Part shown: positions 205 to 61,905 of the stretch, piece by piece
How the letters are laid out: each line of letters opens with the position of its first letter
How positions within the stretch are numbered: position 1 is the first letter of the stretch
IMG/VR virus record: IMGVR_UViG_3300042695_000799
DNA from: a virus
DNA: 62,375 nt
Reading direction: 5' to 3' (one strand)
Notes under the pieces: generated by a model
Database searches by the model: none
What the model was told of the DNA's origin: nothing
Seen by the model: only the letters and a program-made list of their open reading frames with translations
Translations under genes and position numbers: made by a program

Positions 205-579
205 TGGCGCATCGGGAGCAATCTCCGACCTTGCTACGCTTTAGAGGTTTAACCATGCTCTAACCTAGCGCCCGCTAAGGGGGCCAATCCTAGCCAACCG
301 ATAGATACCGGCGCCGTGCTTTCTGCAAGGCACGACGCAATTTAATCCATTCCCTTGACTTTGCTCCCATGAACTTACCCCTAACCAGCTACGCGGGAAT
401 TGATTTTGCTCAGCTTAACGGAAATGAAGTAACGTTTTCTGCCGCTTTACGTGAACGCGGCTGGAAAGGTGTTTACGAGTAACATCAAGGAATTAACGTT
501 TACAAGATCAAGAATCGGCCAGGCGAAACGGTTTTAGGTATGACGATTTTTGAAGGTGGTCTGGCTTGCAAGCATTATC

Positions 580-609
580 TTGCCACCACCGCCTAACCCG
601 TGCTACAAT
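580..609 (+). promoter_or_regulatory. sigma70-type promoter P2 (TTGCCA, 18-nt spacer, TG-extended TACAAT)
   Basis: TTGCCA 580-585; TG 601-602; TACAAT 604-609; shares cTTGCCA and aacccgTGCTAyrAT with P1. Confidence 0.5.
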
Positions 610-621
610 TCACCCATCGGG

Positions 622-655
622 CCACGGTCCGCCGGAGCCTATCCGGCAACTCATT
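622..655 (+). repeat. Intergenic hairpin repeat, copy A (CCACGGTCC GCCGGA-gccta-TCCGGC AACTCATT)
   Basis: Stem 631-636/642-647, loop 637-641; same element at 1259, 60180, 60489. Confidence 0.85.
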
Positions 656-672
656 CTACTGCATTGACAGTC

Positions 673-930
673 ATGTTTTACGTTCAAGCAACGCTTCAGC
701 AACCTAAGGGAACTTTAAGCGTGAGCAAAGACCAGCCTTCTAGATTCCCTAGGGAAGCTTATGTTTGCTGGGATACCTTGCTGTCGCGAGGAGATATTCC
801 TTGTTTCCGGTGCATTGACGATCCAGCGATAAGGCCAGTATCAAGAGAAGAGGCAGAACGACTAATGCTTAGATGCCAAGAAGTTCATGGAGCAATGTAT
901 GACCATAACTTGCGAATTGTACCTGCTTAA
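673..930 (+). CDS. hypothetical protein (85 aa, start MFYVQ)
   Basis: In frame with ORF 550..930; ATG at 673 chosen because promoter P2 and hairpin copy A lie inside the longer ORF. Confidence 0.55.
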   Translation: MFYVQATLQQPKGTLSVSKDQPSRFPREAYVCWDTLLSRGDIPCFRCIDDPAIRPVSREEAERLMLRCQEVHGAMYDHNLRIVPA

Positions 931-942
931 CCCTTCATCTCA

Positions 943-1254
943 TTGACCCTCGTGGCAAACGCTAACCTCCTAGTCACAACCGTCTACACCGACCCCTCCA
1001 TCGGCTTGACCGTCCAGGCCTGGCAAAGATCCCCTTGTTCTTGGTATCTCCTTTTTCGGGTAAAGGATCAGTATTCACTAACGCTTAATGAAACAGCGGT
1101 TTTCTATATGTTCCGCAGGTTGACTGAATGGCATGAGCAGCCTGCCGGCGGATGGGCACATTGGGCATGGCATCCAATCGGCCATCGCATGGTCCCCCCG
1201 TCAGCGCTGGCTGCCGTAGAAGCCTGGTTAAGCGAACAAGAGGCAGCCGCCTGA
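943..1254 (+). CDS. hypothetical protein
   Basis: ORF track (non-ATG start); ends ...gccgccTGAccc directly at hairpin copy B. Confidence 0.5.
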   Translation: MTLVANANLLVTTVYTDPSIGLTVQAWQRSPCSWYLLFRVKDQYSLTLNETAVFYMFRRLTEWHEQPAGGWAHWAWHPIGHRMVPPSALAAVEAWLSEQEAAA

Positions 1255-1258
1255 CCCT

Positions 1259-1291
1259 CACGGCCCGCCGGAGCCTATCCGGCAACTCATT
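1259..1291 (+). repeat. Intergenic hairpin repeat, copy B
   Basis: CACGGCCC GCCGGA-gccta-TCCGGC AACTCATT; stem 1267-1272/1278-1283. Confidence 0.85.
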
Positions 1292-1316
1292 TTCACTGCA
1301 TTAACCCCCATCACCA

Positions 1317-2415: not shown

Positions 2416-2511
2416 AGTACAAACCAACTAGAGTACAAACCAACTAGAGTACAAACCAACTAGAGTACAAACCAACTAGAGTACAAACCAACTAGAGTAC
2501 AAACCAACTAC
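2416..2511. repeat. Iteron-like tandem array, 6 x 16 bp (AGTACAAACCAACTAG)
   Basis: Units start at 2416, 2432, 2448, 2464, 2480, 2496; five are perfect and the last ends in C instead of G. Confidence 0.95.
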
Positions 2512-2553
2512 GTTAAGTATTGTTACAGTCTGCCGCTGCTGTCGTTTTTAATC

Positions 2554-11536: not shown

Positions 11537-13672
11537 ATGCCCTCGCGCACCGTGCCTCAGGCTGGCGTCCGACTTGAGCCAATGAATGACGGTGATGCCA
11601 GCGCATCCATCGGCATTTTTGGCGAAATTGGTTGGGATGTAACCGCTGAAGATGTAGCCGCTGCCGTTGCACAGGCAAAAGGCAAGCCACTAAATGTTGA
11701 CATCTTTAGCTACGGCGGAGATGCCCTGCAGGGTCTTGCAATTTACCAAATTCTTTCAGCGCACGACGCTGAGGTAACAACTAATGTTCTTGGCGTTGCC
11801 GCTAGCGCGGGAAGCGTAATTGCGATGGCTGGCAAATACCGCAAGGTGGCCGTCAACGCCGCTTTAATGATTCATAGCCCTTGGTCAGTTACCGTTGGAG
11901 ACGCAAGCGAGCACCGTAAATCAGCAAACATGCTTGACGGTCTTGAGTCCGCGTATCTCTACACGTATTCCACTGCGACCGGCATCCCCGCCGCCGACAT
12001 TCAGCCTTACTTAGCAGAAGAACGCTGGATGTACGGCGAAGAAGCAATGGCCCTCGGTTTCGCCACTGAAGCCCCCGAGCCCATCAAAGCCTTTGCCAGC
12101 ATTGCGCCCCCGCCCGCCGATCGTTTCCGCCAAATTCCCGCCGATCTAAAAGCCATGGCGGGTATCAGCGTGGAAGCCCCGGCTGAAATCGTTGATCCCG
12201 CCAACCCCCCCGAGGATCCCAAGCCTAAAGTCGCAACCGCCGACCTAACGGCCGCGCTTGAGTCTGTGGCGCGAGCCATAAATCCCACCCCACCGACTAT
12301 GACTAGCCTTAGCGCTGAACAGCTTACCTCACAAACCGCCGCTCTCCCGATGACCGTTGAAACCACCCAAGCGGATGCGGCGCTCGCGGAGCGCGAGCGC
12401 ATCCAGTCCATTCAAGGAATGGTCGCCTCAAAGGGCCTTCCCGACGAGTTTGCCCTTGAATTAGTCAACAGCGGAAGGTCCGTGGCTGAAGCCCGTCACG
12501 CCGTTCTTGATCGACTGCCTAGCGTAACCCGCCACTCCACTGAACGCGGAGCCGTGGCCAGTCTCACCGCAAGCGGCATTGATCTTTCCGAAAAAGATTG
12601 CAAGGTCTACAGCCTTCAAAACGTTTTTCGGCACCTAGCCGAGCCCACCAATGCAGCCTATCGCAACGCGATCGGCTTTGAGATGGAGCTGCATGACGAG
12701 CTTCAAAAAAATCACGCCCGGTCCGCTGCTGGCGTCCTTGTTCCTCACAACATTTTCGCCGTCAATGCTCGCCCGCCCGGCTTCCGTCCGCAAGCCGTTC
12801 AGCGCACAGACAGCTTTAGCGCTGGCGGGGCCCTTGTGCCAACCGATCGCCTTGACGGTCAGTTCGTAGACCTTCTGCGCAATATGTCGGCCTTTATGAG
12901 GACTGGAATTACTGTCCTAAACGGCCTTTCTGGCAACGTTGAAATTTCCAAGCAGACTGGCCCTAGTACCACTTTCTGGGTAGGCGAAGGCGGCGATGTC
13001 AACGAAAGCGACCTCTCTTACGGCCTGGTCAATATGTCGCCCAAAACCTTGGGCGCCCGAGTTGCTATTTCGCGTCGAGCCTTGATTCAAACAAGTCCTG
13101 ACATTGAAAACCTTAACCGCAATGACGTGCTCAAGCAAATTAGCTTGGGCATTGACAAGGCGATTGGCTACGGCACCGGATCTTCGTCTCAGCCGCTAGG
13201 CATTAAGGGCATAACTGGGGTTGGCGGCGTCACGTTTTCTGGCGGCAAGACTGCAACATTCAACACCCTGCAGGGCGGCGGAACCGGAAGTTGCGGCACT
13301 TGGGAGCAGTGGGTACAACTTGAAACCGAGCTGTCCAGCGTTAACATTGAGGCCGACACAATGGTTCACCTCTTCAACGGAGCAATGCGCGGCGGGCTCA
13401 AAACCACTCTCCGCGATTCCGTGGCTGGTGCTGACTACATCTTTGCTGAAGACAAAACCGTAAACGGTTATAGCACTATCGTCAGTAACCAGATTCAGTC
13501 AAACGATGCCTTCTTCGGGGACTGGCCCGAAGCCCTTCTTGGCTTCTGGTCTGGCGTGGATCTCGTCGTGGATCCCTACACTCGCTCTAGTCGCGGAGAA
13601 GTTGTCTACACCGCGTTCCAGGACACCGACTTTGGCCTTCGGCGTCCCGAAGCGTTTGTGGTTGGTAGCTGA
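11537..13672 (+). CDS. Fused S49/ClpP-like prohead protease, scaffold-like linker and HK97-fold major capsid protein
   Basis: N-terminus IFSYGGDALQGLAIYQIL...GVAASAGSVIAMAG (ClpP/S49); C-terminus GALVPTDRLDGQFVDLLRN...LGARVAISRRAL... (HK97-type capsid); no stop between them. Confidence 0.8.
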   Translation: MPSRTVPQAGVRLEPMNDGDASASIGIFGEIGWDVTAEDVAAAVAQAKGKPLNVDIFSYGGDALQGLAIYQILSAHDAEVTTNVLGVAASAGSVIAMAGKYRKVAVNAALMIHSPWSVTVGDASEHRKSANMLDGLESAYLYTYSTATGIPAADIQPYLAEERWMYGEEAMALGFATEAPEPIKAFASIAPPPADRFRQIPADLKAMAGISVEAPAEIVDPANPPEDPKPKVATADLTAALESVARAINPTPPTMTSLSAEQLTSQTAALPMTVETTQADAALAERERIQSIQGMVASKGLPDEFALELVNSGRSVAEARHAVLDRLPSVTRHSTERGAVASLTASGIDLSEKDCKVYSLQNVFRHLAEPTNAAYRNAIGFEMELHDELQKNHARSAAGVLVPHNIFAVNARPPGFRPQAVQRTDSFSAGGALVPTDRLDGQFVDLLRNMSAFMRTGITVLNGLSGNVEISKQTGPSTTFWVGEGGDVNESDLSYGLVNMSPKTLGARVAISRRALIQTSPDIENLNRNDVLKQISLGIDKAIGYGTGSSSQPLGIKGITGVGGVTFSGGKTATFNTLQGGGTGSCGTWEQWVQLETELSSVNIEADTMVHLFNGAMRGGLKTTLRDSVAGADYIFAEDKTVNGYSTIVSNQIQSNDAFFGDWPEALLGFWSGVDLVVDPYTRSSRGEVVYTAFQDTDFGLRRPEAFVVGS

Positions 13673-19932: not shown

Positions 19933-22900
19933 ATGACCTCTAATCGCACGGTCAAGTTTGAGTTTCAGGTTGAAGCTGACGACAGGCAGCTTGGCCGGTT
20001 TCGTGATGCGCTAGGCAAAATAAACTCGGCAACAGCGGTAAGCGAAAGTGTTCTCAGTGGCCTAAGGAAAGAGCTTGTTGCACTTTCTCAGACTACTGTT
20101 CAAACGGAAAACGGTCTGCAAGCTCAGATTGCTGCTTTGCGGGATGCGAGCAGAAACGCAGACTTGACCAAGAGTGAGTACACGTCGCTACGGCTTGAGG
20201 TCAGCAAACTTGAAAAAGAATACAAACTTTTAACAACCAACATTGTTGGCCTTGATAAGACTTACAAGGTTGCAACTCAGAGTGCCAGGCAATTCTCCCA
20301 AGAACAAATAGCCGCCGCCCAACGCACAAACAATTTCTATCTCAACAATTCCGGTCAGCGTTCCGCCGATGCGGCCAATCGCGCTCAATTCTTAGCTGGA
20401 ACTTCCGGCGCTGCAAACATATTCCCAGTTGACCCAACAAGTCAATTAGGTTTTCAGCAACGCATTGCAAATCTAAGACAAGAGGCAACTCTCGTTGGCA
20501 TGGGAACAGATGCCTACAAAGAGCGTGCGCTTGCAATTAACAAACTTGAACAAGAGTACGAACAACTTGCGCGAGTCGAGGATCAGTCAACTATTGATCG
20601 CCGAAGCCGCGCTAGCCGCAGGCAGCGAATCCGCGAAATAGGCAACGTCGCCAGCAACGTCGCCATCGGCGGCTTCTTTGGTGGCCCCGAGGGCTTGGCC
20701 GGATCAGCCGCAGGCGCCCTTGCTGGCTCTTTTTTTGGCCCTGGAGGTATGGTCGCAGGCGCCCAGCTAGGTGCCTCCGTTGGCCTTGCCGCTCAGCAGG
20801 CACGCATACAAGCAACCGCCGTAGCCGATATGGTTGCGCAGTTGAACCTTGCAAAAACAGCCCTTGCTCAAGTTTCGGCTAATCAGGCAGACTACAATCA
20901 AAAACTTGAGTTTTCTCGTCAAGTCTCAACCGACTACAGCGTTGGACTGCAGGCCACAATTGAGGGATACTCTAAGGTCACAGCCGCTGCCGCTGCTAAT
21001 GGTTTAACGCTGAAAGAAACTGAAACAATCTACAAGGGCTTACTTGCTTCCGGTGTTGCATTTGGTGCATCGCAAGACGATTTGCAGTCAATTATTACGG
21101 CGACTACGCAGATTTTATCAAAGGGCAAACTGTCTGCAGAAGAGGTTTCCGGCCAACTTGGCGAGCGCATCCCCGGCGCAGTCGCAAAATTAGCTCAAGT
21201 GACCGGCAGATCACTAAAGCAACTGGCTGATGATTTCCAAAATGGCAAAGTAAACATTGCTGACTTTGTTAAGTTTGCAGAAGGGCAGCTCAATAATTAC
21301 GATAAAGCCGCTAAACTGATTGGTTCTTCGCCGGAAAAAGCTGGCGAAAGGCTGAATCTTGCGTTGACACGCATGGCGGAATCTTACGGCGGATTCTTTC
21401 AATCGGTTGGAGCTGGTTTTCAAGATTTTGCGACAAGATTTATCAATTGGATCAACTCTCAGTCGCAGGGCATTAAAACTATGGTTGGCCTGCTCAATTG
21501 GGCTGGCCGCGAAGTTTACAAGTTTCAAACAAATACACCCGCAGTTAGAGCGTTCCAAAGCCTAGGCTCGCAGCTTTCCGGGTCACACCAAGCTCGCCCA
21601 CCTGCGGGGTTTGTGCGAAATCCTGCTGATCCATACGGTATAAGTACGACGCCATTCATCCAGGCACCTGTCTTCGGCAGAGCGCCCAAGGCGCCGAAAA
21701 GCAACTTCTTTGCTGATAGACTCCGTGAAGGCGAGCGGCTGTTTCCAGACCTTAAGTCAACCCTATTCAATCAAAGCACTTCTACCCCTGCCCTTGGCGA
21801 TTTAACCGCCGCCGACGACAAAGCTAGCAAAGCCGCCGACACCGCAGCCAGGAAAGCGCAAGCCGAAGCCGACAGGGCAACTCAGTTACAAGAAAAACTT
21901 GATTCTGAACAGCGCCGCCGCGATGAGCTGCTGGCCAACAACGCAATTCGGCTTGCGGATCAAGTTTTCCAGCACAGAATGGATTTGCTGCGTCAAGAAT
22001 ATGACTTAAAGCAGCAATTAGTCGAGGCAACTCGCTCAGCGGAAGAAGCTGGCATGACCGGCGTTGCCCGCAATATGCAGGGCACAATCAATCAAATTCT
22101 TAGCCTTTATGATCGCCTAAAGCAAGGCAGACTTAATGATGCGCTTGACCTTAAGTTGGCTGATCAGCGGATTACGACCGAGCGTAAGAGTGCTGAAAAT
22201 ACTGCAAGGTATCGGGAGGTTCCGCAGTCGGCGGTGGGAATGCGGGGTGGTAGCGCGTTTTCCGGCGGAGCTACAACCCGCTGGATCCGAGACAAGGATG
22301 CGGAGCAAAGCGGCTATGACGTTGTATTACCTGGTGGCGTTGGTGGCCGTGTCCCGAACCCCGTCAGCGGGCTCAAGGTTACCGGCAAAGGCTTTCAAGG
22401 TAGCGGCAGAGGTGCCACGGGGCGCGGGTACGGCAGCTATGTGTCTGGTGAATTTGTAGGCATTGACGGCAAAAGGTATGAAATGCTACTGGGACACTTT
22501 GATAAAATTGAAGTCGAAGTTGGTGACATTTTATCTAAGGGGCAAACCATCGGAAGACAGGGTGAAACTGGCCGCACTTTTGGCACTCATGTAACCTCGC
22601 ATGTGAACGCTCTTGACGGTGGCGACGCTTGGAACGCATTGCGCAGGGACGTAGTTCAGCCATGGGTAAGTGGATGGGGTGGCACCAAAGCAACCCCAGG
22701 CTCCACCCAAGCCCGCACCCAACCCGGCGCAGCTCAAGGCATCAACCGCAACATCGTTGACACCGGCAACACCGATATTGCCACTGCGGATAAAGCGGCA
22801 TTAGTTGCCAAACAAAAGCAAAACGCGCAATACTTGCTTCAGACTGCAGAGAAGCAAGCTGAAGCCTTAATCGAAAACACTACAACCTCGTACCGCGATC

Positions 22901-24096
22901 AAACGCAAGCACTGCAAGATCAGCTACAGGAGTTCCGCGAGCGCAATCGCTTGCAAATGGAAGGCGTCAAGCCGGAAATCATTGATCAGCAAATGCAGCT
23001 TAGCAAGCTCACCCGCGATTATGCGAGGGAAAGTGAAGCCTTAAGCAGTGCGTTAAAAGGTATTGGCGAACGAAACAAGGACAATGCTAGCCTGTTTGAC
23101 ACTTTCACAGGCGGCTTGGGGAAGCTAAAGGCTGCCTACGACGAAAATCGTCAAGCACTAGAAGCCCTAAGCAAAGCCCAAAACGACGAACGCAACATCT
23201 TCAGCTTTGACAAAAGCGCCAAGGCCGGAATCGACGGTTACATTGAATCCATCGGCACCCTAAACAACGCCACGTCAAACTTGGTGCAAAGCGGTTTTAA
23301 TGGAATCAGCACAGCCCTCAAAGAACTCCAGTCAACTGGATCAACCGATTTCAGGAAATTTGCGCTTAGCCTTATTTCGGACATGCAGGATATTATCACT
23401 CAGCAATTTATTGTTGCTAATTTAGCAAAACTGCTTCGCGGCCTTTTTGGCGGCGGCGGATTCTCGTTTAGCGGCGCCAGCCCTGTTGGGTTTCCCGGTG
23501 GCGGCGGTGTTGACTTTGCCGGGGCCATGAACATGCCCGCGCTCGCGTTCGCCAACGGCGGCGTGATGACCTCCAACGGCCCCCTCAAGCTGCAGACCTA
23601 CGCCCGTGGCGGGATCGCCGACAGGCCCCAGCTAGCCTTTTTTGGCGAGGGCTCAAAGCCCGAAGCGTTCGTCCCCCTGCCTGACGGCAGGCGCATCCCG
23701 GTGGCGCTCTCCTATCCTGCTATCCCAGGCACCCCTGGCGGCAGCGGTGGCGATGGCGCCGAAAGTGGCCCAGGCGGCGCAACAAGCAACAGATTTGAGC
23801 GCACCGACACAATAATTAACAATGCCGGTAAATTTGAGCGCACCGATTCCATGGTTACCCGCATGATTGAGTCGGCGCGACAGGAATCAGCAGACAACGC
23901 CACTGCTGCTGCGATTGCCGCCAGTGGCGGCGGCGTCGTCAAGGTGCAAGTAGAATCAACTGTAGTTAATAGCATTGAAACCGTAACAATGGATCAGGTT
24001 CAACGTGTTGCCGACGCAGCTTCCGCACGTTCCACCGCACGCCATGACGCGGCAATGCGCAACAATCCCGCAGAGCGCAGGAGAAGGGGATTCTGA
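19933..24096 (+). CDS. Tape measure protein with an internal M23-like peptidase segment
   Basis: 1387 aa, coiled-coil/Ala-Gln-rich, Gly-rich hydrophobic patches; LLGHFDKIEVEVGDILSKGQTIGRQGETGRTFGTHVTSHV resembles the M23 core. Confidence 0.8.
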   Translation: MTSNRTVKFEFQVEADDRQLGRFRDALGKINSATAVSESVLSGLRKELVALSQTTVQTENGLQAQIAALRDASRNADLTKSEYTSLRLEVSKLEKEYKLLTTNIVGLDKTYKVATQSARQFSQEQIAAAQRTNNFYLNNSGQRSADAANRAQFLAGTSGAANIFPVDPTSQLGFQQRIANLRQEATLVGMGTDAYKERALAINKLEQEYEQLARVEDQSTIDRRSRASRRQRIREIGNVASNVAIGGFFGGPEGLAGSAAGALAGSFFGPGGMVAGAQLGASVGLAAQQARIQATAVADMVAQLNLAKTALAQVSANQADYNQKLEFSRQVSTDYSVGLQATIEGYSKVTAAAAANGLTLKETETIYKGLLASGVAFGASQDDLQSIITATTQILSKGKLSAEEVSGQLGERIPGAVAKLAQVTGRSLKQLADDFQNGKVNIADFVKFAEGQLNNYDKAAKLIGSSPEKAGERLNLALTRMAESYGGFFQSVGAGFQDFATRFINWINSQSQGIKTMVGLLNWAGREVYKFQTNTPAVRAFQSLGSQLSGSHQARPPAGFVRNPADPYGISTTPFIQAPVFGRAPKAPKSNFFADRLREGERLFPDLKSTLFNQSTSTPALGDLTAADDKASKAADTAARKAQAEADRATQLQEKLDSEQRRRDELLANNAIRLADQVFQHRMDLLRQEYDLKQQLVEATRSAEEAGMTGVARNMQGTINQILSLYDRLKQGRLNDALDLKLADQRITTERKSAENTARYREVPQSAVGMRGGSAFSGGATTRWIRDKDAEQSGYDVVLPGGVGGRVPNPVSGLKVTGKGFQGSGRGATGRGYGSYVSGEFVGIDGKRYEMLLGHFDKIEVEVGDILSKGQTIGRQGETGRTFGTHVTSHVNALDGGDAWNALRRDVVQPWVSGWGGTKATPGSTQARTQPGAAQGINRNIVDTGNTDIATADKAALVAKQKQNAQYLLQTAEKQAEALIENTTTSYRDQTQALQDQLQEFRERNRLQMEGVKPEIIDQQMQLSKLTRDYARESEALSSALKGIGERNKDNASLFDTFTGGLGKLKAAYDENRQALEALSKAQNDERNIFSFDKSAKAGIDGYIESIGTLNNATSNLVQSGFNGISTALKELQSTGSTDFRKFALSLISDMQDIITQQFIVANLAKLLRGLFGGGGFSFSGASPVGFPGGGGVDFAGAMNMPALAFANGGVMTSNGPLKLQTYARGGIADRPQLAFFGEGSKPEAFVPLPDGRRIPVALSYPAIPGTPGGSGGDGAESGPGGATSNRFERTDTIINNAGKFERTDSMVTRMIESARQESADNATAAAIAASGGGVVKVQVESTVVNSIETVTMDQVQRVADAASARSTARHDAAMRNNPAERRRRGF

Positions 24097-36816: not shown

Positions 36817-37206
36817 GTGTCAAAACGTGTTACCAAGCATCGGTTCCGGCGAGCAATTATCAACGCCTGGGAGGAGTGCTGCGCCTACTGTGGATGCAAG
36901 CCAAGCAGCATAACACTAGATCACGTAACCCCCAAGGTAGGGGGTGGAACTACTCAATGGTCTAATTTGGTCCCAGCTTGCGCTTCGTGCAATGGATCTA
37001 AAGGGCATTCTGATGTATGGGACTGGTATCGGTTGCAGTTATTTTACTGTGCAGCTAGGGAGCAAAAGATCAAGGATTGGCTGACCAATGAAAAACCCCC
37101 GCCGGTTGGCGAGGGTTACGGGGTTAACGAAAGGGGCGATCAGGCGGCGGGAGGCTCGGTGCTTTCCGAGGGGTTGGCTGCCCCGCCAGTCGTGTCGTCT
37201 TCGTAG
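36817..37206 (+). CDS. HNH endonuclease
   Basis: CAYCG...LDHVTPKVGGGTTQWSNLVPACASCNGSKG. Confidence 0.8.
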   Translation: MSKRVTKHRFRRAIINAWEECCAYCGCKPSSITLDHVTPKVGGGTTQWSNLVPACASCNGSKGHSDVWDWYRLQLFYCAAREQKIKDWLTNEKPPPVGEGYGVNERGDQAAGGSVLSEGLAAPPVVSSS

Positions 37207-37589
37207 ACTGGAGCCAGCATGATGCGGCCACCTTCCAAGAGTTCAATGGTAAACTCGTAGCCAGCTTCCGCCCCCTGGAGGGCGGTGTAGCCAGCGCTGA
37301 CAATCAGGTTGCCATTGGCCTGCACCTTAGCTTTGTAGCTGAGCTGGCGGCCGGGGCGGGACGCTACGGCGGGGGCAAGAACCAGGCCCCTGGCCTCCAG
37401 CAGCGCTTCGTAGAATGCAGTGTATTCAATGCGCTCGGTGCCGTCTTTTTTGGTCACAGAGTAGCCGGTTTCGCGGGCTATTTGGTCCTTAGGAGTGGCA
37501 TCGCCAAGCTCTTCGACTTTGGCGAGCAGTTCTTTGCCGGTGAGTTGGGCCACGTTGGAGCGGTAAGGTTTGTTGAACCCCTGAATCAT
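37140..37589 (-). CDS. cyAbrB-type transcriptional regulator (C-terminal AbrB/SpoVT domain)
   Basis: LTGKELLAKVEELGD...ETGY...FYEALLEARG...LSYKAKVQANGNLIVSAGYTAL...GYEFTIEL matches cyanobacterial cyAbrB architecture. Confidence 0.7.
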   Translation of the reverse strand: MIQGFNKPYRSNVAQLTGKELLAKVEELGDATPKDQIARETGYSVTKKDGTERIEYTAFYEALLEARGLVLAPAVASRPGRQLSYKAKVQANGNLIVSAGYTALQGAEAGYEFTIELLEGGRIMLAPVYEDDTTGGAANPSESTEPPAA

Positions 37590-38557
37590 ACCATATCAAA
37601 CAGCGATACCTGCTTTCCGCCTTGCCCATTTTGCGCGGTTATCGACGCTGCGGTTGCCGCGACAGGAAGACCGGCCATCAGGCGGCGCAGGCGGTTGCGA
37701 GCACGTAGCTCGATGCCTTGCAGTGTGGCGCGGCTAAGGCCGGTGCGCTCCTCAATCTCAGACCACGGCTGAGTCGTATCCCCGTGACGGCTCAGCAGCA
37801 CTTCTCGGGCTTGCGAGTCAACCTGTTCGGCCAGAAAACCGTCTACCCGCTCAATGGCGTGCTGGTCGCTTAGCCAGTCCAAGTGCTCGTCGGCGGTCAT
37901 GGCGGCGGGATCGGCGATCAGATCACCCAAGCAGCCGCCGCCTTCCCCTCCCGGCAGTTGCTCGTCTAGGCTGCCAACATAGCGAGAGCGCTGAACCACT
38001 TCAGCAAGAGCTTTTAGGTCAAAGTTAAGATGTTTTGCAATTTCAGCAGACGATGGCTTGCGACCTAAGGCTTGAGATAAAGATTGCTGGGCATTGCTAA
38101 CCTTGATTAGCTTGTTATGAATTGGCACCGGCAAGCGTATTATGGGATCATCCCACTTTACCGAATTTTGTATTTCCTGCCTAATCCAAAAAAAGGAATA
38201 AGTTGAAAACTTATAGCCTCTTGTGGGATCAAACTTATCCACTGCGCGAGAAAGGCCAATGTTGCCCTCCTGTATCAGATCAAGTAACTGTAGCGTGCGA
38301 CGGTCGGCCTGGAATTTTTTAGCTATTTTTACCACAAGGCGCAGGTTTGATTGTATGAATTTTTGCTTAGCTCTAACACCAAGCCTAATTAAGCGGCGCT
38401 GCTCTGCTGTTATTTTTTCACCCTCGGATTCACGCTTAACAAGTCCTAGCATGATAGATATTTCACGGCTTAGCTCAATCTCCTGCTTAGATGTTAACAG
38501 TGGGTAGCGGCCAATCTGCTTTAGGTAATCGCGCAAGGCTGGATCGGATTGCCTCAT
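37586..38557 (-). CDS. sigma-70 family sigma factor (group-2-like), paralogue 1
   Basis: DLIQEGNIGLSRAVDKFDPTRGYKFSTYSFFWIRQEI (region 2); C-terminal HTH LSRATLQGIELRARNRLRRL (region 4.2). Confidence 0.9.
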   Translation of the reverse strand: MRQSDPALRDYLKQIGRYPLLTSKQEIELSREISIMLGLVKRESEGEKITAEQRRLIRLGVRAKQKFIQSNLRLVVKIAKKFQADRRTLQLLDLIQEGNIGLSRAVDKFDPTRGYKFSTYSFFWIRQEIQNSVKWDDPIIRLPVPIHNKLIKVSNAQQSLSQALGRKPSSAEIAKHLNFDLKALAEVVQRSRYVGSLDEQLPGGEGGGCLGDLIADPAAMTADEHLDWLSDQHAIERVDGFLAEQVDSQAREVLLSRHGDTTQPWSEIEERTGLSRATLQGIELRARNRLRRLMAGLPVAATAASITAQNGQGGKQVSLFDMV

Positions 38558-39414
38558 TGCACTTGCTCCTGTAACAGAAGTCTGATACGGTTTTGAATTT
38601 TGGTCAGCCTTTGGTTCATTCTTTGCCTTGAAACACTGTGTAACTGCCCCAGCTCAACAAGGCTGTGCGCGTGGTAGCCGTCAAAGCCAAAACGCCTGAC
38701 GATTAAATCACGATCACCCTCGGAAAGGGTTAAAATTAAATTAGCTAAAGAAGAGTAATCAGCCAACGGGATTTCGTTGTCTTCATTGGGATTAGGTAAA
38801 TTGTCAATCATCTCACTCCCGCTTTCGGACTGCACGTTTAGCGACGATACCGGAGCCATTGCCGCCGCAATAGAAGTGAAGCTCTTTTCGCTTAAACCGG
38901 AAGCCCGCATCAGCTCAGCGCTAGTTGGGGTGCGACTTAATGCTATTGTTAGTCTTTTGTTTTCTTTTTGAACCCTTGCCCAGTCTAAGTGGCAATGCTC
39001 AGGCAACCTTATTAGTTGGTCGCTGTCGTGGATGCCTCTCCTGATTCCCTGCACAATCCAGGGTCTTGAGTAAGTTGAAAACTTATAGCCTCTTGTAGGG
39101 TCAAACTTTTCGGCGGCACGCTTCAGGCCAGCAGCCCCATACTGAATCAAGTCTTCAATACTGTTCAACTTACATGAACCAGCGTAGAGCTTGGCCACGG
39201 AAACGACAAGCCGCAGGTTACATAGTACCATGCGGTCAAGCGAGCGCTGTCCTTTTGTAATTACTTTTAACTGTTTACGAGTAGGTCTGCGGCTGCCAAC
39301 TTCTTCAGAAGTTTTAATGCCAGCCTGAATAAACCTGCCTAAGTCAATCTCTTCAGCGGCGGTCAACAACTGCCATTTCCCGATCTTGCCTAAGTATTGA
39401 CCAAGTGTATCCAT
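38554..39414 (-). CDS. sigma-70 family sigma factor, paralogue 2 (more diverged)
   Basis: DLIQYGAAGLKRAAEKFDPTRGYKFSTYSRPWIVQGI; C-terminal VSRQRMNQRLTKIQNRIR. Confidence 0.85.
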   Translation of the reverse strand: MDTLGQYLGKIGKWQLLTAAEEIDLGRFIQAGIKTSEEVGSRRPTRKQLKVITKGQRSLDRMVLCNLRLVVSVAKLYAGSCKLNSIEDLIQYGAAGLKRAAEKFDPTRGYKFSTYSRPWIVQGIRRGIHDSDQLIRLPEHCHLDWARVQKENKRLTIALSRTPTSAELMRASGLSEKSFTSIAAAMAPVSSLNVQSESGSEMIDNLPNPNEDNEIPLADYSSLANLILTLSEGDRDLIVRRFGFDGYHAHSLVELGQLHSVSRQRMNQRLTKIQNRIRLLLQEQVQ

Positions 39415-49363: not shown

Positions 49364-49872
49364 GGTTGGTGGCTAGGGGATGATGGGCGAGCTGGGAACA
49401 CCACTGAGGGCGGATTGGCGAGTCGAGCCTGTTTCAGGCTGTCGAGCAGTGCTGCCCGGCTGCTCAGTAACAGCAGGATGAGATCAGCCTGTGACATCCC
49501 GGACCCGAATGCGTCATAGGCCAGTTTGTCGGTGTTGAGATAGTCGCCCAGCATCTCCGGCGTGAGCGGTAACGAGGGCTCTGCTCCTTTCTTCGGCACC
49601 GGGCTGTAGAGCTGTCCGAGTGTGACGCGCTGGTCGGGCCCCTGCTGCCTGAGCCAATCGACAACCTCCATGGATACACGCTCTGCAGTTACATCGATGT
49701 ACGCACACTCAAGCCGCAAGGTGGCGCAGGGAGACCCAGCTTCAAAGTCAACTGAATGCACTCGGAGCAGAGGCTCACCGCTCAGCCGAACCGGCTGCTG
49801 AGGTTGTCCGATATGCCAGCGGGTCGCGGAGTCGTCGTCTCCAATCAAGCGAAATTGGGCCATGGGAAGCAT
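49360..49872 (-). CDS. hypothetical protein
   Basis: ORF track. Confidence 0.5.
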   Translation of the reverse strand: MLPMAQFRLIGDDDSATRWHIGQPQQPVRLSGEPLLRVHSVDFEAGSPCATLRLECAYIDVTAERVSMEVVDWLRQQGPDQRVTLGQLYSPVPKKGAEPSLPLTPEMLGDYLNTDKLAYDAFGSGMSQADLILLLLSSRAALLDSLKQARLANPPSVVFPARPSSPSHQP

Positions 49873-49923
49873 GTGATGGGGAGATGTGCCGGATGGGCTC
49901 CGGCGTGGCGTGGTGTTGGTTGT

Positions 49924-50232
49924 TCATGGTTGGTCGGGGGTGGGATAAGCATTGACCCAGGGGTAGCGCTCTCGCCATTCGCGACGGAGCTGTTGCTTGG
50001 ATAAACGAAGGCTCCAAGACAAAGCTGCCCTTCGGTGGTGATCAAGTGGTTCACTCTTTAAGTGAAACACCCTATGGCACAGCGTTTTTTTCCCAAGCGC
50101 ATTGCCGTAGAAAAGCCACCAAGTAATAAACTCGTCTCCAATTAACGCAGTCTTTGCCCAACTGAAAATGGGTCGGTGCGGGTCGGTGCGATTACGAGGA
50201 AACACTTGATCTTTGACTTGTTCGTTTTTCAT
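49924..50232 (-). CDS. hypothetical protein
   Basis: ORF track. Confidence 0.45.
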   Translation of the reverse strand: MKNEQVKDQVFPRNRTDPHRPIFSWAKTALIGDEFITWWLFYGNALGKKTLCHRVFHLKSEPLDHHRRAALSWSLRLSKQQLRREWRERYPWVNAYPTPDQP

Positions 50233-53323: not shown

Positions 53324-53980
53324 TCATTTAATGTTCGCTGTCAATACAGCTTCTGGGTTTTCAAAACCAAGTAGCGGCAGGAAGAAAAATGGCAAACTTT
53401 TTGCACGCATAACTTCGGCGCCTTGGATTTCATTTGTTGCCCCTGCGGCGGCCCGTGCGGCGGCCCGTGCGGCGGCCCGTGCGGCGGCCCGTGCGGCGGC
53501 CCCTGCGGCGGCCCGTGCGGCGGCCCGTGCGGCGGCCCATGCGGCGGCCCATGCGGCGTCCCGTGCGGCGGCCCCTGCGGCGGCCCATGCGGCGTCCCGT
53601 GCGGCGGCCCGTGCGGCGGCCCAGTCTTTTGCGGTCATACAGTCAAGATGCCGCCAAAATGCAAGCACCACTTGCGCCTGGTCCCCTAAAACCTGTTCGG
53701 GATTGCGAATGACGCTAGTAGGCGCACCATCTTGTCTGTCATTGACAATTCGCAGCAGCACTGAGTGTGAGCGACTGATACTAAACAACTCGGCAACACG
53801 TTTATCTGCTTTTTCTTGTTCAAGGTTGTTTAGATCATCAGCAGACATGCCGTCAAGAAAATGCAGCGCCTGACCTTGCGCGCACATGCAAGAGCCATCA
53901 TCGCTAACGAGACTCCCTTTGAATGGGATACTGCCGGGCCAGTAGTCCAGCAATTCTTCAACTGTGGCTGGGGTGGTCAT
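53324..53980 (-). CDS. hypothetical protein with a C-terminal (AARA)n / DAAWAAA helical repeat
   Basis: WAAARAAARDAAWAAAGAAARDAAWAAAWAAARAAARAAAGAAARAAARAAARAAARAAAGA. Confidence 0.6.
   Translation of the reverse strand: MTTPATVEELLDYWPGSIPFKGSLVSDDGSCMCAQGQALHFLDGMSADDLNNLEQEKADKRVAELFSISRSHSVLLRIVNDRQDGAPTSVIRNPEQVLGDQAQVVLAFWRHLDCMTAKDWAAARAAARDAAWAAAGAAARDAAWAAAWAAARAAARAAAGAAARAAARAAARAAARAAAGATNEIQGAEVMRAKSLPFFFLPLLGFENPEAVLTANIK
53443..53622. repeat. 15 tandem copies of a 12-bp unit NTGCGGCGGCCC
   Basis: Counted units from 53443 to 53622; variants at the first base and G>T in two units. Confidence 0.9.
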
Positions 53981-54009: not shown

Positions 54010-54258
54010 TTAGCGCCTTCTGGTTGCGGTTGAAATGGTACCGTAACCGGAACCGGAACCGGAACCGTCACCGTAACCGTAACCGTCACCGTAACCGTAA
54101 CCGTAACCGGAACCGTCACCGTAACCGTAACCGTAACCGGAACCGTCACCGTAACCGTAACCGGAACCGTCACCGTAACCGGAACCGTAACCGTCACCGT
54201 CACCGTCACCGTAACCGTCACCGTCACCGATCGGCCTGACTACTTGGATGGGTGTCAT
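54010..54258 (-). CDS. Gly/Tyr/Asp/Ser low-complexity protein (82 aa)
   Basis: MTPIQVVRPIGDGDGYGDGDGDGYGSGYGDGSGYGYGDGSGYGYGYGDGSGYGYGYGDGYGYGDGSGSGSGYG...; TGATG junction with the upstream gene selects this frame. Confidence 0.5.
   Translation of the reverse strand: MTPIQVVRPIGDGDGYGDGDGDGYGSGYGDGSGYGYGDGSGYGYGYGDGSGYGYGYGDGYGYGDGSGSGSGYGTISTATRRR
54039..54229. repeat. Hexanucleotide-based repeat tract (ACCGTA/ACCGTC/ACCGGA units, about 190 bp)
   Basis: Direct reading; several overlapping frames stay open across the tract. Confidence 0.85.
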
Positions 54259-59871: not shown

Positions 59872-60175
59872 ATGTGTTAGCAGCGCCGCGCAAGCCCGCA
59901 AGATGGGCTTAAAGGTAGGCGACACGATTCAAAGCCTGGAAAGATGCCAAAAGTACGACTTGTACGAATGGCACGAACTCCGAATAACCCTCATTCGGAT
60001 AGACCAGTATTACACCGACTGGATTGCCAGCGAACGCGACGACCGGCAAGGCCCCTGGTCAGATCCCTACAAGACCGAAAACGTGGCTCTGTGCTGCTAC
60101 ATATGGGAGCGGGTTGATACTCCGCCTGAGCACACCGACTTCATGGATTTGGCAGACGACCACCAATCCGCCTGA
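59840..60175 (+). CDS. hypothetical protein (alternative start 59903)
   Basis: ORF track; ends ...tccgccTGAccccc at hairpin copy C. Confidence 0.5.
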   Translation: MALPSPPVFPECVSSAAQARKMGLKVGDTIQSLERCQKYDLYEWHELRITLIRIDQYYTDWIASERDDRQGPWSDPYKTENVALCCYIWERVDTPPEHTDFMDLADDHQSA

Positions 60176-60179
60176 CCCC

Positions 60180-60212
60180 CACGCCCCGCCGGGGCTTGCC
60201 CGGCAACTCATT
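60180..60212 (+). repeat. Intergenic hairpin repeat, copy C
   Basis: CACGCCCC GCCGGG-gcttg-CCCGGC AACTCATT; stem 60188-60193/60199-60204. Confidence 0.85.
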
Positions 60213-60229
60213 CCACTACATTCAAACCA

Positions 60230-60484
60230 ATGGACCTTTCCAAGAACATGCAATCCGAAACTGACATGGGCATGTGGAGGCTTGAAAATAACCTCGCGGT
60301 CTCAAGACATTGGCACGGGAAGGAAGACCGTTACAACCGACCCGGGCTGGAAGCGGCCATTCTAAACGTAAAAAACAATCGTAATTTTTACGCAACTTAT
60401 GAAGCCTATAAACGGCATTGGTTTCATCTTGAGAGGGGCCTAGGCCTTTTCAGGGCCGCCGAAGCTGCGCATCAAGCCACCTAG
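60230..60484 (+). CDS. hypothetical protein (84 aa)
   Basis: ORF track; ATG 18 nt after copy C. Confidence 0.5.
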   Translation: MDLSKNMQSETDMGMWRLENNLAVSRHWHGKEDRYNRPGLEAAILNVKNNRNFYATYEAYKRHWFHLERGLGLFRAAEAAHQAT

Positions 60485-60488
60485 CCCC

Positions 60489-60520
60489 CACGGCCCGCCG
60501 GGAGCCAATCCCGGCAACCC
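60489..60520 (+). repeat. Intergenic hairpin repeat, copy D
   Basis: CACGGCCC GCCGGGA-gccaa-TCCCGGC AACCC; 7-bp stem 60497-60503/60509-60515. Confidence 0.8.
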
Positions 60521-60581
60521 TTCCCCATCGATCTCCTGTCCATGACTTGCGTCCTTCAGTTCCTAATGGTGGAGATTGACG

Positions 60582-60755
60582 ATGCCTGACCCCATCAGTG
60601 CTGAACTGAAAACGGCTCTGAATGCCGCCCACTTTGCTTTATTGGAAGCCGCAGATCACATCCGAAGGCGTGAAGGCTGGAGCCCTGCTTACCGCCGCGC
60701 ATCGAATGCCAGTGATGTTGCACAGCAAGCTCTAATCAAGCAGGCCAATGCCTGA
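60582..60755 (+). CDS. Possible 57-aa protein (MPDPISAELKTALNAAHFALLEA...)
   Basis: Manual translation; 8-nt overlap with the next gene. Confidence 0.4.
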   Translation: MPDPISAELKTALNAAHFALLEAADHIRRREGWSPAYRRASNASDVAQQALIKQANA

Positions 60756-60957
60756 CCCCACCAAATGGGCCCGCTACCGGGCCCGGCTGGTTGGCGATCT
60801 TCCCCCGGTGCCGCTGTGCCCCACCTGCGGACGAAAGATCCGTGGTGCGGGCCGTGATGGCCTCTGCTCCCGCTGCTGGGCTGTCACGCCAGCCGGCCGG
60901 GAAAACCTCAGGCAGCGAGTTGCTCGCTCTCGTCGGCGAGCTGCAGGGGCGAGCTGA
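60748..60957 (+). CDS. small zinc-ribbon protein
   Basis: CPTCG...CSRCW. Confidence 0.5.
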   Translation: MPDPTKWARYRARLVGDLPPVPLCPTCGRKIRGAGRDGLCSRCWAVTPAGRENLRQRVARSRRRAAGAS

Positions 60958-60972
60958 CGTGACGTGGGCGGG

Positions 60973-61413
60973 CTAAGCGGTAAAAGCTTCCAGCAGGCTG
61001 CCCTGCTCACTACCGATGCACGCGGGCGATAGCCACAGCCGCTCCCGGCGACCGTTCAATCCGTTGGTGCTGTAGCCAGCTCCACTGCCTGACTTCCCCT
61101 CGGTGACGGACCAGCCACAGGCCAGAAGAGCATCGTGCTCGGCGTCGTAGCCGCAGAGGATGACCCGCAGATCGCGGGGGGCAGCGGCACACCATTCGCG
61201 CACGGCCAGGCCCACATCGGCATCCACGTGGGCGTAGAGATCACCTGAGGTGGCATAGGGCGGATCCAGGAAGATCGCCCGCGTGCCATCGCCACCGGTG
61301 CCGCTGCGGGTGACCGATGGCTTTACCACCCCACCACCCATCGCCAGATATGACCAGCGCAACCGCCAACAAGCAGCAAGCCCAATTCCCCGACCACGTT
61401 GCCGGGGATCCAT
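60973..61413 (-). pseudogene. Truncated D12-class (Dam-like) N6-adenine DNA methyltransferase: C-terminal half only
   Basis: IFLDPPY catalytic motif and a Dam-like C-terminal tail (GRRERLWLSP); no AdoMet-binding N-terminal half; the only minus-strand ORF in a plus-strand block. Confidence 0.45.
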
Positions 61414-61868
61414 ATTGTCTCAATCGTGAAGAGTTTATTAGATTTGCAGGATTACAGGAGGATTACGATGCTTTCCTAAAGGTGCTGCAGAAAAAGGCGG
61501 CAGGCGGCAGACTGCCTGGGAACGGGCATAATTACGAGCCCGAGTGCCAGGCCTTCTGGGCCGCCATCGCTTCGTTTGAGGCGATGCGCAGGTTTCACTC
61601 AGATTCGGATTGCTGCGACTCTTGGTTCCGCATGGAAGCCAGCCGCTATGCCGCTGGCGGCTGCAAACTGGAATACAGGTACGAAAGTACCTCAGGCACG
61701 ACATTTACGGCCCTTGAATGGCGAAAGTACAACGACCCGGCGTCAGAGTTCGAGCCGGTCACTTTGCCGGAGCCGATGTTCGTTGTCTGCATTCCAGACA
61801 CACGCGACATGGCAGGTCGCACCCACTATGAAGCCCTCCGCCGGGGCGGAAGTTATCGCGACTTCTGA
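61350..61868 (+). CDS. hypothetical protein (start MTSATANK)
   Basis: ORF track, internal ATG. Confidence 0.5.
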   Translation: MTSATANKQQAQFPDHVAGDPYCLNREEFIRFAGLQEDYDAFLKVLQKKAAGGRLPGNGHNYEPECQAFWAAIASFEAMRRFHSDSDCCDSWFRMEASRYAAGGCKLEYRYESTSGTTFTALEWRKYNDPASEFEPVTLPEPMFVVCIPDTRDMAGRTHYEALRRGGSYRDF

Positions 61869-61890
61869 CCCACCCACGGCCCGACCCATT
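61868..61890 (+). repeat. Degenerate copy E of the intergenic repeat (5' arm only, no hairpin)
   Basis: tgaCCCACCCACGGCCCGACCCATTA directly after a stop codon. Confidence 0.4.
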
Positions 61891-61905
61891 ACTTTTCCAA
61901 TCACC

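Follow-up and report, generated by a model that had tools for sequence, protein, structure and literature searches.

A box-and-hairpin element in the gaps between small genes of uncultured siphoviruses

What is the role of a short hairpin-forming sequence that is repeated, in one orientation, in the gaps between small phage genes? The question is raised by IMG/VR virus record IMGVR_UViG_3300042695_000799, the whole of which (62,375 nucleotides) is called the window here. A first-pass annotation of this DNA described a repeated family with a conserved hairpin from five copies, A to E. The family is upheld and proves far larger than first seen: about 160 distinct copies, on the coding strand, are found on more than 130 IMG/VR contigs, and the element is common to well over 100 uncultured relatives of this phage.

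Six copies in a circular genome

The window is a closed siphovirus genome of 62,248 bp, whose bases 1-127 are identical to 62249-62375. Its host is probably a Cyanobium-type picocyanobacterium. Because the ends overlap and the genome is circular, the copies that had been described as left-hand, and so as separate from those on the right, form one contiguous cluster of 3.3 kb. A covariance model search, which the first-pass annotation had suggested, recovers the copies of the relatives and also a sixth copy, F, in the window. With a model built from 73 relatives, all six copies in the window are found on the coding strand (Table 1), and copies A to D score 40-54 bits (E-values 1e-12 to 6e-9). 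Copies A to E lie where they had been placed: A (623-655), B (1259-1291), and C (60180-60212) have at most one mismatch to the consensus proposed at that time, for which no match is expected (100 shuffles), and D and E are found at their sites as well. The conserved box, the stop-codon context, the circular continuity, and copy F had escaped the first-pass annotation.

The hairpin of copy A appears in its MFE structure. Upstream of this copy a promoter scan recovers the promoter-like sequence P2, and copy A begins about 6 nt 3' of the predicted P2 start. This supports the earlier view that the P2 transcript would have copy A at its 5' end. The -10 module of P2 (22 nt) is also found in P1 (177-204); in P2 it separates the copy A box from the usual 'GCCTAACCC' stop context. 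Downstream of copy D, the ATG at 60542 starts a mini-ORF of 15 codons that overlaps the ATG of the next gene at 60582. Copy F has two ATGs, at 49872 and 49863, and the one at 49863 agrees with the family spacing of 24 nt. Copy E had been called degenerate, rightly, as it has no hairpin. The orthologous junction in a related locus, L121, keeps the full hairpin that is missing here, and copy E is an element that lost its 17-nt hairpin.

Table 1. Element copies and associated features of the window
Feature	Coordinates	Strand	Score (bits)	Parts and remarks
Copy A	622-672	+	44.5	box CCACGGTCC 622-630; hairpin 631-647 (GCCGGA/GCCTA/TCCGGC); leader 648-672; ATG 673; no upstream cistron
Copy B	1252-1316	+	54	stop TGA 1252-1254; box TCACGGCCC 1258-1266; hairpin 1267-1283; leader 1284-1316; ATG 1317
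Copy C	60173-60229	+	44.7	stop TGA 60173-60175; box CCACGCCCC 60179-60187; hairpin 60188-60204 (GCCGGG/GCTTG/CCCGGC), G-C closing pair; leader 60205-60229; ATG 60230
Copy D	60482-60541	+	40.4	stop TAG 60482-60484; box 60488-60496; 7-bp hairpin 60497-60515 (GCCGGGA/GCCAA/TCCCGGC); leader 60516-60541
Copy E	61866-61905	+	17.5	stop TGA 61866-61868; box CCACGGCCCG 61874-61883 fused to leader 61884-61905; ATG 61906; without hairpin, no structure on folding
Copy F (new)	49862-49926 (model match 49883-49918)	-	37.9	stop TGA 49926-49924; box CCACGCCAC 49913-49905; hairpin 49904-49888 (GCCGGA/GCCCA/TCCGGC), then leader; coding strand of its gene block
P2, promoter-like	580-609	+		TTGCCA-N18-TACAAT with upstream TG
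Segment between E box and A box	61884-62375, on through the junction to 621	+		about 1.35 kb; absent from the L121 arrangement

Anatomy, conservation, and distribution

The unit consists of a stop codon, 3-6 nt, the box CCACGGCCC, a G+C hairpin of 6-7 bp, a leader of about 24 nt, and ATG. The last codons and stop of unrelated upstream genes ('GCCGCCTGACCC') belong to the conserved unit, and 131 of 133 copies begin 0-18 nt (mode 3-6) past a stop codon on the same strand. The distance from hairpin to start codon is 11-35 nt with a mode of 23-25; the 15-25 nt to the next ATG given by the first-pass annotation is correct. Intergenic gaps have a median length of 55 nt (IQR 52-58). Leaders consist of 47% C, 26% A, and 12% G, and only 18 of 132 contain a Shine-Dalgarno-like motif. 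Although pairwise identity among leaders is about 37%, their length is kept, which points to selection on the distance between hairpin and AUG. On folding, the leader is predicted to be unstructured, and the adjoining hairpin has a median of -10.3 kcal/mol. Stop-codon readthrough and gene fusion were considered and rejected, since the downstream ATG shows no preference among the three frames relative to the upstream stop (35, 37, and 49 copies).

The hairpin loop is GCCYA, and loop length ranges from 4 to 7 nt. Covariation of the stem, which had been claimed without restriction, is narrower than that, because five of the six pairs are nearly invariant. It is real but modest, and it is carried by the closing pair, the seventh pair, and two compensated pairs of a subfamily. 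Among 119 distinct sequences the closing pair is AU in 90, GC in 24, GU in 2, and another combination in 1; in an independently ascertained set the counts are 38, 7, 1, and 1. The seventh pair is added on both arms in about 30 of 150 copies. In a rare subfamily (GCTT...AAGC / GCCT...AGGC), compensated changes are found at pairs 3 and 4. Overall 98-99% of stem cells are paired, and RNAalifold returns this helix only. When the scan is anchored on box and leader alone, with the hairpin left unconstrained, 23 of 23 matches keep the hairpin. As the stem is largely invariant, covariation by itself is a thin line of evidence. Stem mismatches are few (G.U roughly 5-7, A.C 4-5), and the similar frequency of the two types gives sense RNA no preference over DNA. 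In copy E and some relatives, the box, the leader, and the downstream gene are kept without the hairpin, indicating that the hairpin is sometimes dispensable.

The family counts 147 matches in 94 sources. A further 70 matches are found in loci fetched via a neighbouring protein, and 69 of these 70 are on the strand of that gene. The 27-nt core, consisting of box and hairpin, is almost invariant; the proteins shared by these phages are 30-60% identical. No copy precedes structural genes. The genes separated by the element are small and non-structural, and its position in short gaps between small accessory genes, first described for the window, is borne out across the relatives.

Neither an 8-kb megablast query nor a blastn search with the consensus found a match among cultured phages. 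Known RNA families were rejected, as none of 4227 Rfam covariance models matches at its gathering threshold or at E<=1, and the element has no tRNA or tmRNA match. A search through the genomes of 185,579 species finds the exact core in five contigs only, none of them an array. Three of the five look genuine: two short contigs of Cyanobium MAGs and one contig of 1.7 kb. A host repeat, a REP element, and a CRISPR-repeat mimic are rejected on the same grounds, the core being essentially absent from these genomes and never arrayed. The cyanobacterial HIP1 octamer has no occurrence in the window, which is uninformative here. In the literature, the core sequence was found in no paper. The element forms a new family: sequence comparison detects no match to any of the known families tested. 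It is carried by a large clade of uncultured siphoviruses that probably have freshwater picocyanobacteria as hosts.

Gene exchange at the junctions

The genes flanking the element are small, unannotated, and heavily shuffled. The 158 copies considered here precede 93 families of downstream genes (median 76 aa), and each of the 20 downstream families with at least two copies has more than one upstream family. In alignments between the window and its relatives, the HSP ends lie inside elements. The change of gene content at these junctions, considered when the elements were first described, is borne out by about 90 unrelated downstream families and by breaks of homology inside the elements themselves.

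Two cases illustrate the pattern. The sole element of L121 consists of the left half of E and the right half of A, where the window has 1.35 kb in between. This segment (Table 1) holds the gene from 61906 to 173, P1, the ORF at 370-482, a mini-ORF, and P2. In another relative, L148, a two-gene cassette of 388 bp is 97% identical to the window, and its flanks are unrelated. Mosaic boundaries are also found at gene borders without an element (60748 and 60957). The hairpin variant is weakly linked to the upstream gene (24%) and to the downstream gene (17%), compared with a background of 12%. RecT and exonuclease genes are present in the window, and recombination proteins of the RecT/Exo type are encoded by these phages. 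Since the same 30-60 nt or so are present at every junction, they provide homology for the exchange of small genes, and the element marks points of such exchange among these phages.

Possible functions and known systems

We give about an even chance to the explanation that the element is a 5'-UTR or intercistronic mRNA cassette, which serves the downstream cistron and is also a recombination linker. It would act in the sense-strand mRNA for the downstream cistron. Copy A has no upstream gene and starts just past the predicted P2 start, implying that the unit serves the gene that follows. The stable hairpin, probably along with the box as the site recognised by a sequence-reading factor, would bound an unstructured landing pad for the ribosome. 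The hairpin could also give a protected RNA end after processing; a role in RNA processing or stability would be compatible with the anatomy of the element. A polycistronic transcript would in this way consist of insulated units, one for each small gene, and the homology between elements would be where such genes are gained, lost, or swapped, both within a phage and from one phage to another. Strand bias and geometry suggest action at the RNA level, and both would be displayed by an oriented DNA site too. The near-invariance of box and loop is unexplained by a purely structural role; it would need a factor, or else very frequent exchange between phages.

Several known elements resemble this one in part. 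SAS and ESAS of Cluster K mycobacteriophages are repeated, asymmetric, and well-conserved motifs (Pope et al. 2011, PMC3203893). SAS has a 13-bp consensus, GGGATAGGAGCCC, which is similar to a ribosome-binding site and lies 3-8 bp upstream of start codons; about half of the SAS copies are preceded by an inverted repeat, and the ESAS repeats are 17 bp long and imperfect (PMC3203893). Both are suspected to concern translation initiation (PMC3203893). Like SAS and ESAS, nearly all of which share one orientation in the non-structural half of their genomes, the element is oriented with the genes, is confined to the non-structural part, stands before genes of many different families, and does not occur in the host. 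It has, however, no sequence similarity to SAS, its core is 11-35 nt from the start codon, and most of its leaders have no Shine-Dalgarno motif. Its stem, unlike the ESAS repeats, is 6-7 bp and nearly invariant, and it has in addition a box on the 5' side and a constant spacing to the preceding stop codon. The phages also belong to different lineages, with hosts of different phyla. The only match to the SAS consensus in the window, with two mismatches, is at 39572, away from the elements, and is no more than chance would give.

The first-pass annotation had drawn a parallel with PeSL cassettes of the T4-type phages RB49 and phi1, which combine a strong sigma-70-like promoter with a terminating stem-loop (Arbiol et al. 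2010, PMC2839356). The parallel holds for shuffling. Both are conserved intergenic cassettes with a G+C stem-loop among small, functionally uncharacterised genes of hyperplastic or hypervariable regions, and in both indels and replacements between relatives are bounded by the cassettes. It fails for the promoter and the terminator. A sigma-70 promoter site is found at only one of 156 copies, where it is P2 itself (shuffled mean 0.4), and at least five T within 10 nt past the stem are found in one of 150 copies, so that an intrinsic terminator was rejected and the original remark that the hairpin has no U-tract and is not a classical terminator stands. Copy B is flagged as a terminator only through TTTT in its own leader, which is not a family feature. 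PeSL conservation extends over about 100 bp and is A+T-rich upstream, whereas the element is about 55 nt and C-rich.

The stoperators of mycobacteriophage L5 and of Cluster A, which PMC3203893 sets against SAS, share the arrangement. They too have many short asymmetric copies in small gaps, near stop or start codons and oriented with transcription. The stem of the element, however, shows paired changes, and no repressor or lysogeny module was identified in these phages. Stoperators are 13-bp duplex sites for a repressor and have no hairpin. In the early genes of phage T7, RNase III sites form a hairpin in each gap, as the element does, and the transcript is cut into stable monocistronic units. 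RNase III needs about two helix turns, roughly 20 bp; a stem of 6-7 bp would imply a different nuclease or no cleavage. The nut sites of lambda, in which boxA, a conserved linear box, is followed by boxB, a hairpin with a five-base loop, are read in nascent RNA. The element likewise has a box and a pentaloop hairpin, and one copy is promoter-proximal, but the window has six copies, compared with the one or two nut sites of a lambda-type genome, the hairpin loop does not resemble GNRA, and no N-like protein was identified in these phages. Integron attC sites are long imperfect palindromes used with an integrase, unlike the stem of only 6-7 bp seen here. The element is analogous to SAS/ESAS and PeSL and is a member of neither.

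A small Arg-rich zinc-ribbon protein is encoded within the element clusters (60748-60957 in the window). Of about 125 element loci, 36 carry its gene, and a canonical element lies within 6 kb in 47 of the 78 loci with the zinc-ribbon protein; this co-occurrence may reflect no more than a shared hypervariable region. As a lead only, the protein gives a weak profile match (E 0.006) to the zinc knuckle of ribosomal protein uS14. A cyAbrB-like regulator, at 37140-37589 in the window, is also encoded by these phages. It is conceivable, with a rather low probability, that the 27-nt core is the recognition site of a dedicated phage-encoded factor, the zinc-ribbon protein being a candidate. Such a system would work phage-wide in freshwater cyanophages, and would either co-regulate the hypervariable set of small early genes post-transcriptionally or actively mobilise them as cassettes in an integron-like manner without a tyrosine recombinase. 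The largest ORFs were also checked for a virion or single-subunit RNA polymerase, which was rejected: the three largest encode the tape measure, a tail protein, and the tail fibre.

The element may instead work as DNA. We consider it unlikely that it is an oriented, stoperator-like operator at which a phage protein, for example a dimer on GCCGGA/TCCGGC and the box, controls transcription of the small genes. An almost invariant core suits protein recognition, an inverted repeat is present, and many copies stand in short gaps in a single orientation to transcription, as in L5; G.U is not favoured above A.C in the stem, and both the cyAbrB-like regulator and the zinc-ribbon protein are encoded near elements. 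However, the seventh pair would shift the half-sites 2 bp apart and yet is common, loop length varies, and a single genome can hold several stem variants, as the window does with A/B, C, and D. An operator also leaves the selection on AUG spacing unexplained, and neither candidate protein is encoded in every element-bearing locus. A dedicated recombination site or small mobile element, similar to integron attC or to a MITE and selected to mobilise small-gene cassettes, possibly via a specific recombinase, seems to us quite unlikely. It would account for the extensive shuffling of neighbours, the indel bounded by two copies (E and A compared with L121), the L148 cassette amid unrelated flanks, and the inclusion of the upstream genes' last codons and stop in the conserved unit. 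But a scan of 41 non-structural ORFs turned up no integrase or transposase (ORFs of the structural region were scanned in part), the elements have neither terminal inverted repeats nor target duplications, the hairpin variant goes with neither flank, and some mosaic boundaries have no element. General RecT/Exo recombination on 30-60 nt of homology would suffice for the pattern.

Transcription offers two more explanations. The core could be a phage-specific promoter read by RNA polymerase with a phage sigma factor, with transcripts starting just past the hairpin. The window has two tandem genes of the sigma-70 family, with homologues in 16 related loci, the core is similar in length to the stretch from -35 to -10, every copy is oriented and has a gene downstream, and intergenic repeats of halovirus HF2 carry promoters (PMC8707807). 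Nevertheless, this is very unlikely. The closest similarity of both sigma factors is to the cyanobacterial RpoD/SigA family, which reads TTGACA/TATAAT-type sites, and the core has no TAnnnT hexamer. The near absence of sigma-70-like sites counts against it as well, and a duplex promoter would not be expected to show paired changes and insertions in both arms. A conventional promoter already stands directly upstream of copy A, and no copy precedes structural genes. Least probable of all is a nut-like or factor-loading RNA site that modifies the elongating RNA polymerase, or a terminator or attenuator without a U-tract. A linear box beside a short pentaloop hairpin, the promoter-proximal copy A, and small Arg-rich proteins encoded nearby would fit such a site, but a copy stands at nearly every cluster junction rather than one per operon, no boxA-like sequence was found at the elements, the loop GCCYA is not purine-rich, and there is no T tract. 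Cyanobacteria are not known to have Rho, which also counts against this explanation.

Whether or not it serves as the mRNA cassette and recombination linker that we favour, the element is of use in itself. Only a few cultured phage groups have been described as having conserved cassettes between small, functionally uncharacterised genes (PeSL in T4-type phages, SAS/ESAS in mycobacteriophages, and the halovirus repeats). The present one is unusually sharply defined, with a constant 27-nt core and fixed distances to stop and start codons. It is a ready marker for hypervariable accessory-gene regions, which the covariance model finds. It is also a defined object for studying how cistrons without Shine-Dalgarno motifs are expressed in cyanobacterial systems, and how small genes are exchanged among phages.

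Copies of the element and the phage that carries it

The window has six copies of the element (A to F). The first-pass annotation had placed copies A to E, all of which are present; no match to the 33-nt consensus is expected in shuffled sequence. A search with a covariance model (36 positions, built from 73 copies with 6-bp stems), also suggested there, gives scores of 40-54 bits for copies A-D and 17.5 bits for E (filters off) and adds copy F, which lies between two minus-strand ORFs in sense orientation like the other copies. In 94 sources the model gives 147 matches, of which 133 have distinct contexts. A neighbouring zinc-ribbon protein was used to fetch another 78 loci; these add 70 matches, 69 of which are on the strand of the zinc-ribbon gene. 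An exact-pattern IMG/VR scan for the hairpin and a window-type leader (the stretch from hairpin to start codon) finds three true relatives, and a scan for the box and outer stem finds at least 120 loci, most of the matches listed being obvious members. The element is not found in cultured phages or, as a sequence, in the searchable literature; it matches no Rfam family even at E<=1, and the genomes of 185,579 prokaryotic species are essentially free of it.

Features of the window (coordinates in nt)
Feature	Position	Strand	Description
P1	177-204		sigma-70-like promoter
Short ORF	370-482		37 codons
P2	580-609		sigma-70-like promoter
Copy A	623-655		33-nt consensus, at most one mismatch
Alignment ending in an element	973-1284		with locus L028
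Copy B	1259-1291		33-nt consensus, at most one mismatch
Tandem repeat	2416-2526		16-nt unit AGTACAAACCAACTAG, ~6.5 copies
Head protein ORF	11537-13672	+	711 aa
Tape measure	19933-24096		family scan
Sigma factor and AbrB-like genes	37140-39414	-	sigma genes are tandem paralogues
Copy F	49883-49918	-	covariance model, 37.9 bits
In-frame repeats	53439-53634, 54037-54241	-	inside ORFs
Copy C	60180-60212		33-nt consensus, at most one mismatch
Alignments bounded in elements	60170-60500/60525		with loci L004/L005
Copy D	60488-60515		7-bp stem
Mini-ORF	60542-60589		15 codons
Two-gene cassette	60571-60958		388 bp; L148 5824-6211, 97% identity
Zinc-ribbon gene	60748-60957	+	69 aa, Arg-rich, CPxCGR...LCSRCW
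Alignment ending in an element	61382-61883		with locus L121
Copy E	61874-61883		5' box alone retained

Bases 1-127 are repeated exactly and directly at 62249-62375. This makes the window a 62,248-bp genome that is either circularly closed or terminally redundant, and places copies A-E together in a single 3.3-kb cluster of small plus-strand genes across the junction.

No close relative of the phage is found among 50,697 cultured phage records. The large terminase shares 34-37% identity with its counterparts in Citrobacter phage phiNP, Synechococcus phage S-LBS1, and Rhodobacter phages. Family scans identify a siphovirus with tail proteins and a fusion of prohead protease and major head protein, in which a single ORF contains the protease domain (residues ~20-340) and the head protein domain (~230-710). 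Replication and recombination genes encode primase-helicase, DnaN, SSB, RecT, exonuclease, ligase, dCTP deaminase, and dNMP kinase. The two tandem sigma factors, whose genes share an 82-nt stretch of 74% identity, best match the cyanobacterial RpoD/SigA family, and a gene for a cyanobacterial-type AbrB-like regulator adjoins them. The gene repertoire resembles that described for Prochlorococcus siphovirus P-SS2 (PMC2784084), and Cyanobium MAG contigs account for two of the three genuine element matches in genomes, which makes a picocyanobacterial host likely.

Tandem repeats are also found. The AGTACAAACCAACTAG repeat occupies a non-coding gap just upstream of the structural genes and follows a G+C-rich stretch (2350-2415); it could represent iterons, a packaging site, or an origin site. 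The two long in-frame repeats (one with a 12-nt unit in ~17 copies, the other of GTAACC/GTCACC) would encode highly repetitive proteins.

Anatomy and conservation of the unit

Almost all copies (131 of 133) start 0-18 nt (mode 3-6) 3' of a same-strand stop codon, which is TGA in 101 of the 131 and most often TGAC. GCCGCCTGACCC, the last codons and stop of unrelated upstream genes, is often within the conserved unit. The start codon follows the hairpin at 11-35 nt (mode 23-25), and the gap between the two genes is 55 nt at the median (IQR 52-58). No cistron lies upstream of copy A, which starts ~6 nt past the predicted P2 transcription start; this links the unit to the gene downstream.

The first-pass annotation had described a stem that covaries between copies. 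Five pairs are in fact almost invariant, and 99.2% of cells are paired in 119 distinct sequences. Covariation is found at the closing pair (AU 90, GC 24, GU 2, other 1), in a seventh pair formed by additions to both arms in about 30 of 150 copies, and in a rare subfamily (GCTT...AAGC in three contexts, or GCCT...AGGC in L148) where pairs 3 and 4 change in a compensated manner relative to GCCG...CGGC. An independently ascertained set is 98.2% paired (closing pair AU 38, GC 7, GU 1, other 1), and a scan fixing only the box and leader finds the hairpin kept in 23 of 23 matches with loops of 4-7 nt. The closing-pair covariation, paired insertions, and compensated subfamily thus support the hairpin, though by few independent changes. 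In five window copies it is part of the minimum-energy fold with the leader predicted to be open; the median stem energy is -10.3 kcal/mol, and the hairpin helix is the sole structure found by RNAalifold.

Proteins common to the window and element-bearing loci, including the sigma factors, endolysin, SSB-region genes, and zinc-ribbon protein, are mostly 30-60% identical. The 27-nt core (box and hairpin) is nearly identical in all loci, and leaders keep a length of 23-25 nt although their identity is only ~37% between loci and 44% within a locus. This divergence around a constant core and spacing implies that the core sequence and hairpin-to-AUG distance are under selection, the leader sequence much less so.

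Leaders consist of 47% C, 26% A, and 12% G. A Shine-Dalgarno-like motif is found in 18 of 132, as CAGGAGGA directly 3' of the hairpin. In one subgroup of contigs (L119, L065, L115, and L074) an identical box and hairpin is followed at once by CAGGAGGA, with the start codon 11-15 nt past the stem; L119 has four copies in 1.7 kb (1037-2704). The window's predicted genes have no tblastn match in these loci at E <= 1e-8. Since such loci share the core without a window gene match, the core is used with two different kinds of leader. After copy D, the mini-ORF has a stop overlapping the next gene's ATG (ATGCCTGA) and a 7-codon counterpart in L005; it could be a longer-gene remnant or a coupling ORF.

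Gene content at the elements

As had been proposed, gene content changes at these junctions. Genes downstream of 158 copies belong to 93 families (median 76 aa, most without annotation), and each of the 20 downstream families that occur two or more times is paired with more than one upstream family. Alignments between the window and its relatives start or stop inside elements. In L121, one complete element comes after the homologue of gene 61317-61868. The left half of this element aligns to copy E up to the box, and the right half, which comprises the hairpin, leader, and first codons, to copy A; in the window, these parts are separated by 1.35 kb containing a gene, P1, a short ORF, and P2. 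Another example is the two-gene cassette in L148, a viral contig that shares nothing else with the window within 6 kb either side. The hairpin variant is only weakly linked to either flank. RecT/Exo genes are encoded by the phage.

The zinc-ribbon gene is the most frequent neighbour of the element (36 of ~125 loci). Its family profile has a weak match to the zinc knuckle of ribosomal protein uS14 type Z (E 0.006), and the protein is possibly a nucleic-acid binder.

Function of the element and known systems

The best-supported reading is that the element is a sense-strand 5'-UTR or intercistronic cassette serving the downstream cistron. We infer an RNA-level mechanism, in which a stable structural boundary at a fixed distance would front an unstructured landing pad without a Shine-Dalgarno sequence, the boundary probably doubling as a recognition site. 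An oriented DNA operator is a rival: G.U and A.C mismatches in the stem are about equally rare, which fits DNA and sense RNA alike. Others are a dedicated recombination site, a nut-like or attenuator site, and a phage-specific promoter. Neither SAS nor boxA consensus sequences are at the elements, and a T-rich tail is found in 1 of 150 copies, confirming that the element is no classical terminator. No phage RNA polymerase is encoded, and both phage sigma factors are RpoD-like, which argues against the G+C-rich core as their promoter. A sigma-70 site is found in 1 of 156 element regions, namely P2 upstream of copy A. A readthrough or fusion signal was also rejected (frames 35/37/49).

A 22-nt module, GTGCTAyrATTssCsCATCGGG, is common to P1 and P2 and has no further copies in the window or fetched loci. 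Between P1 and the short ORF are ~160 nt of untranslated sequence, possibly a leader or small RNA.

Among known systems, the element comes closest to SAS/ESAS of Cluster K mycobacteriophages (PMC3203893) and to the PeSL cassettes of T4-type phages (PMC2839356). The element is like both in distribution and evolutionary role, and to this extent the earlier analogy with T4 stem-loops stands; it does not extend to promoters and terminators. Because it lacks the defining sequence features of SAS/ESAS and the defining promoter/terminator features of PeSL, the element belongs to neither family and is a new example of such elements. Through its conservation, the cassette would also be a homology patch for small-gene exchange.
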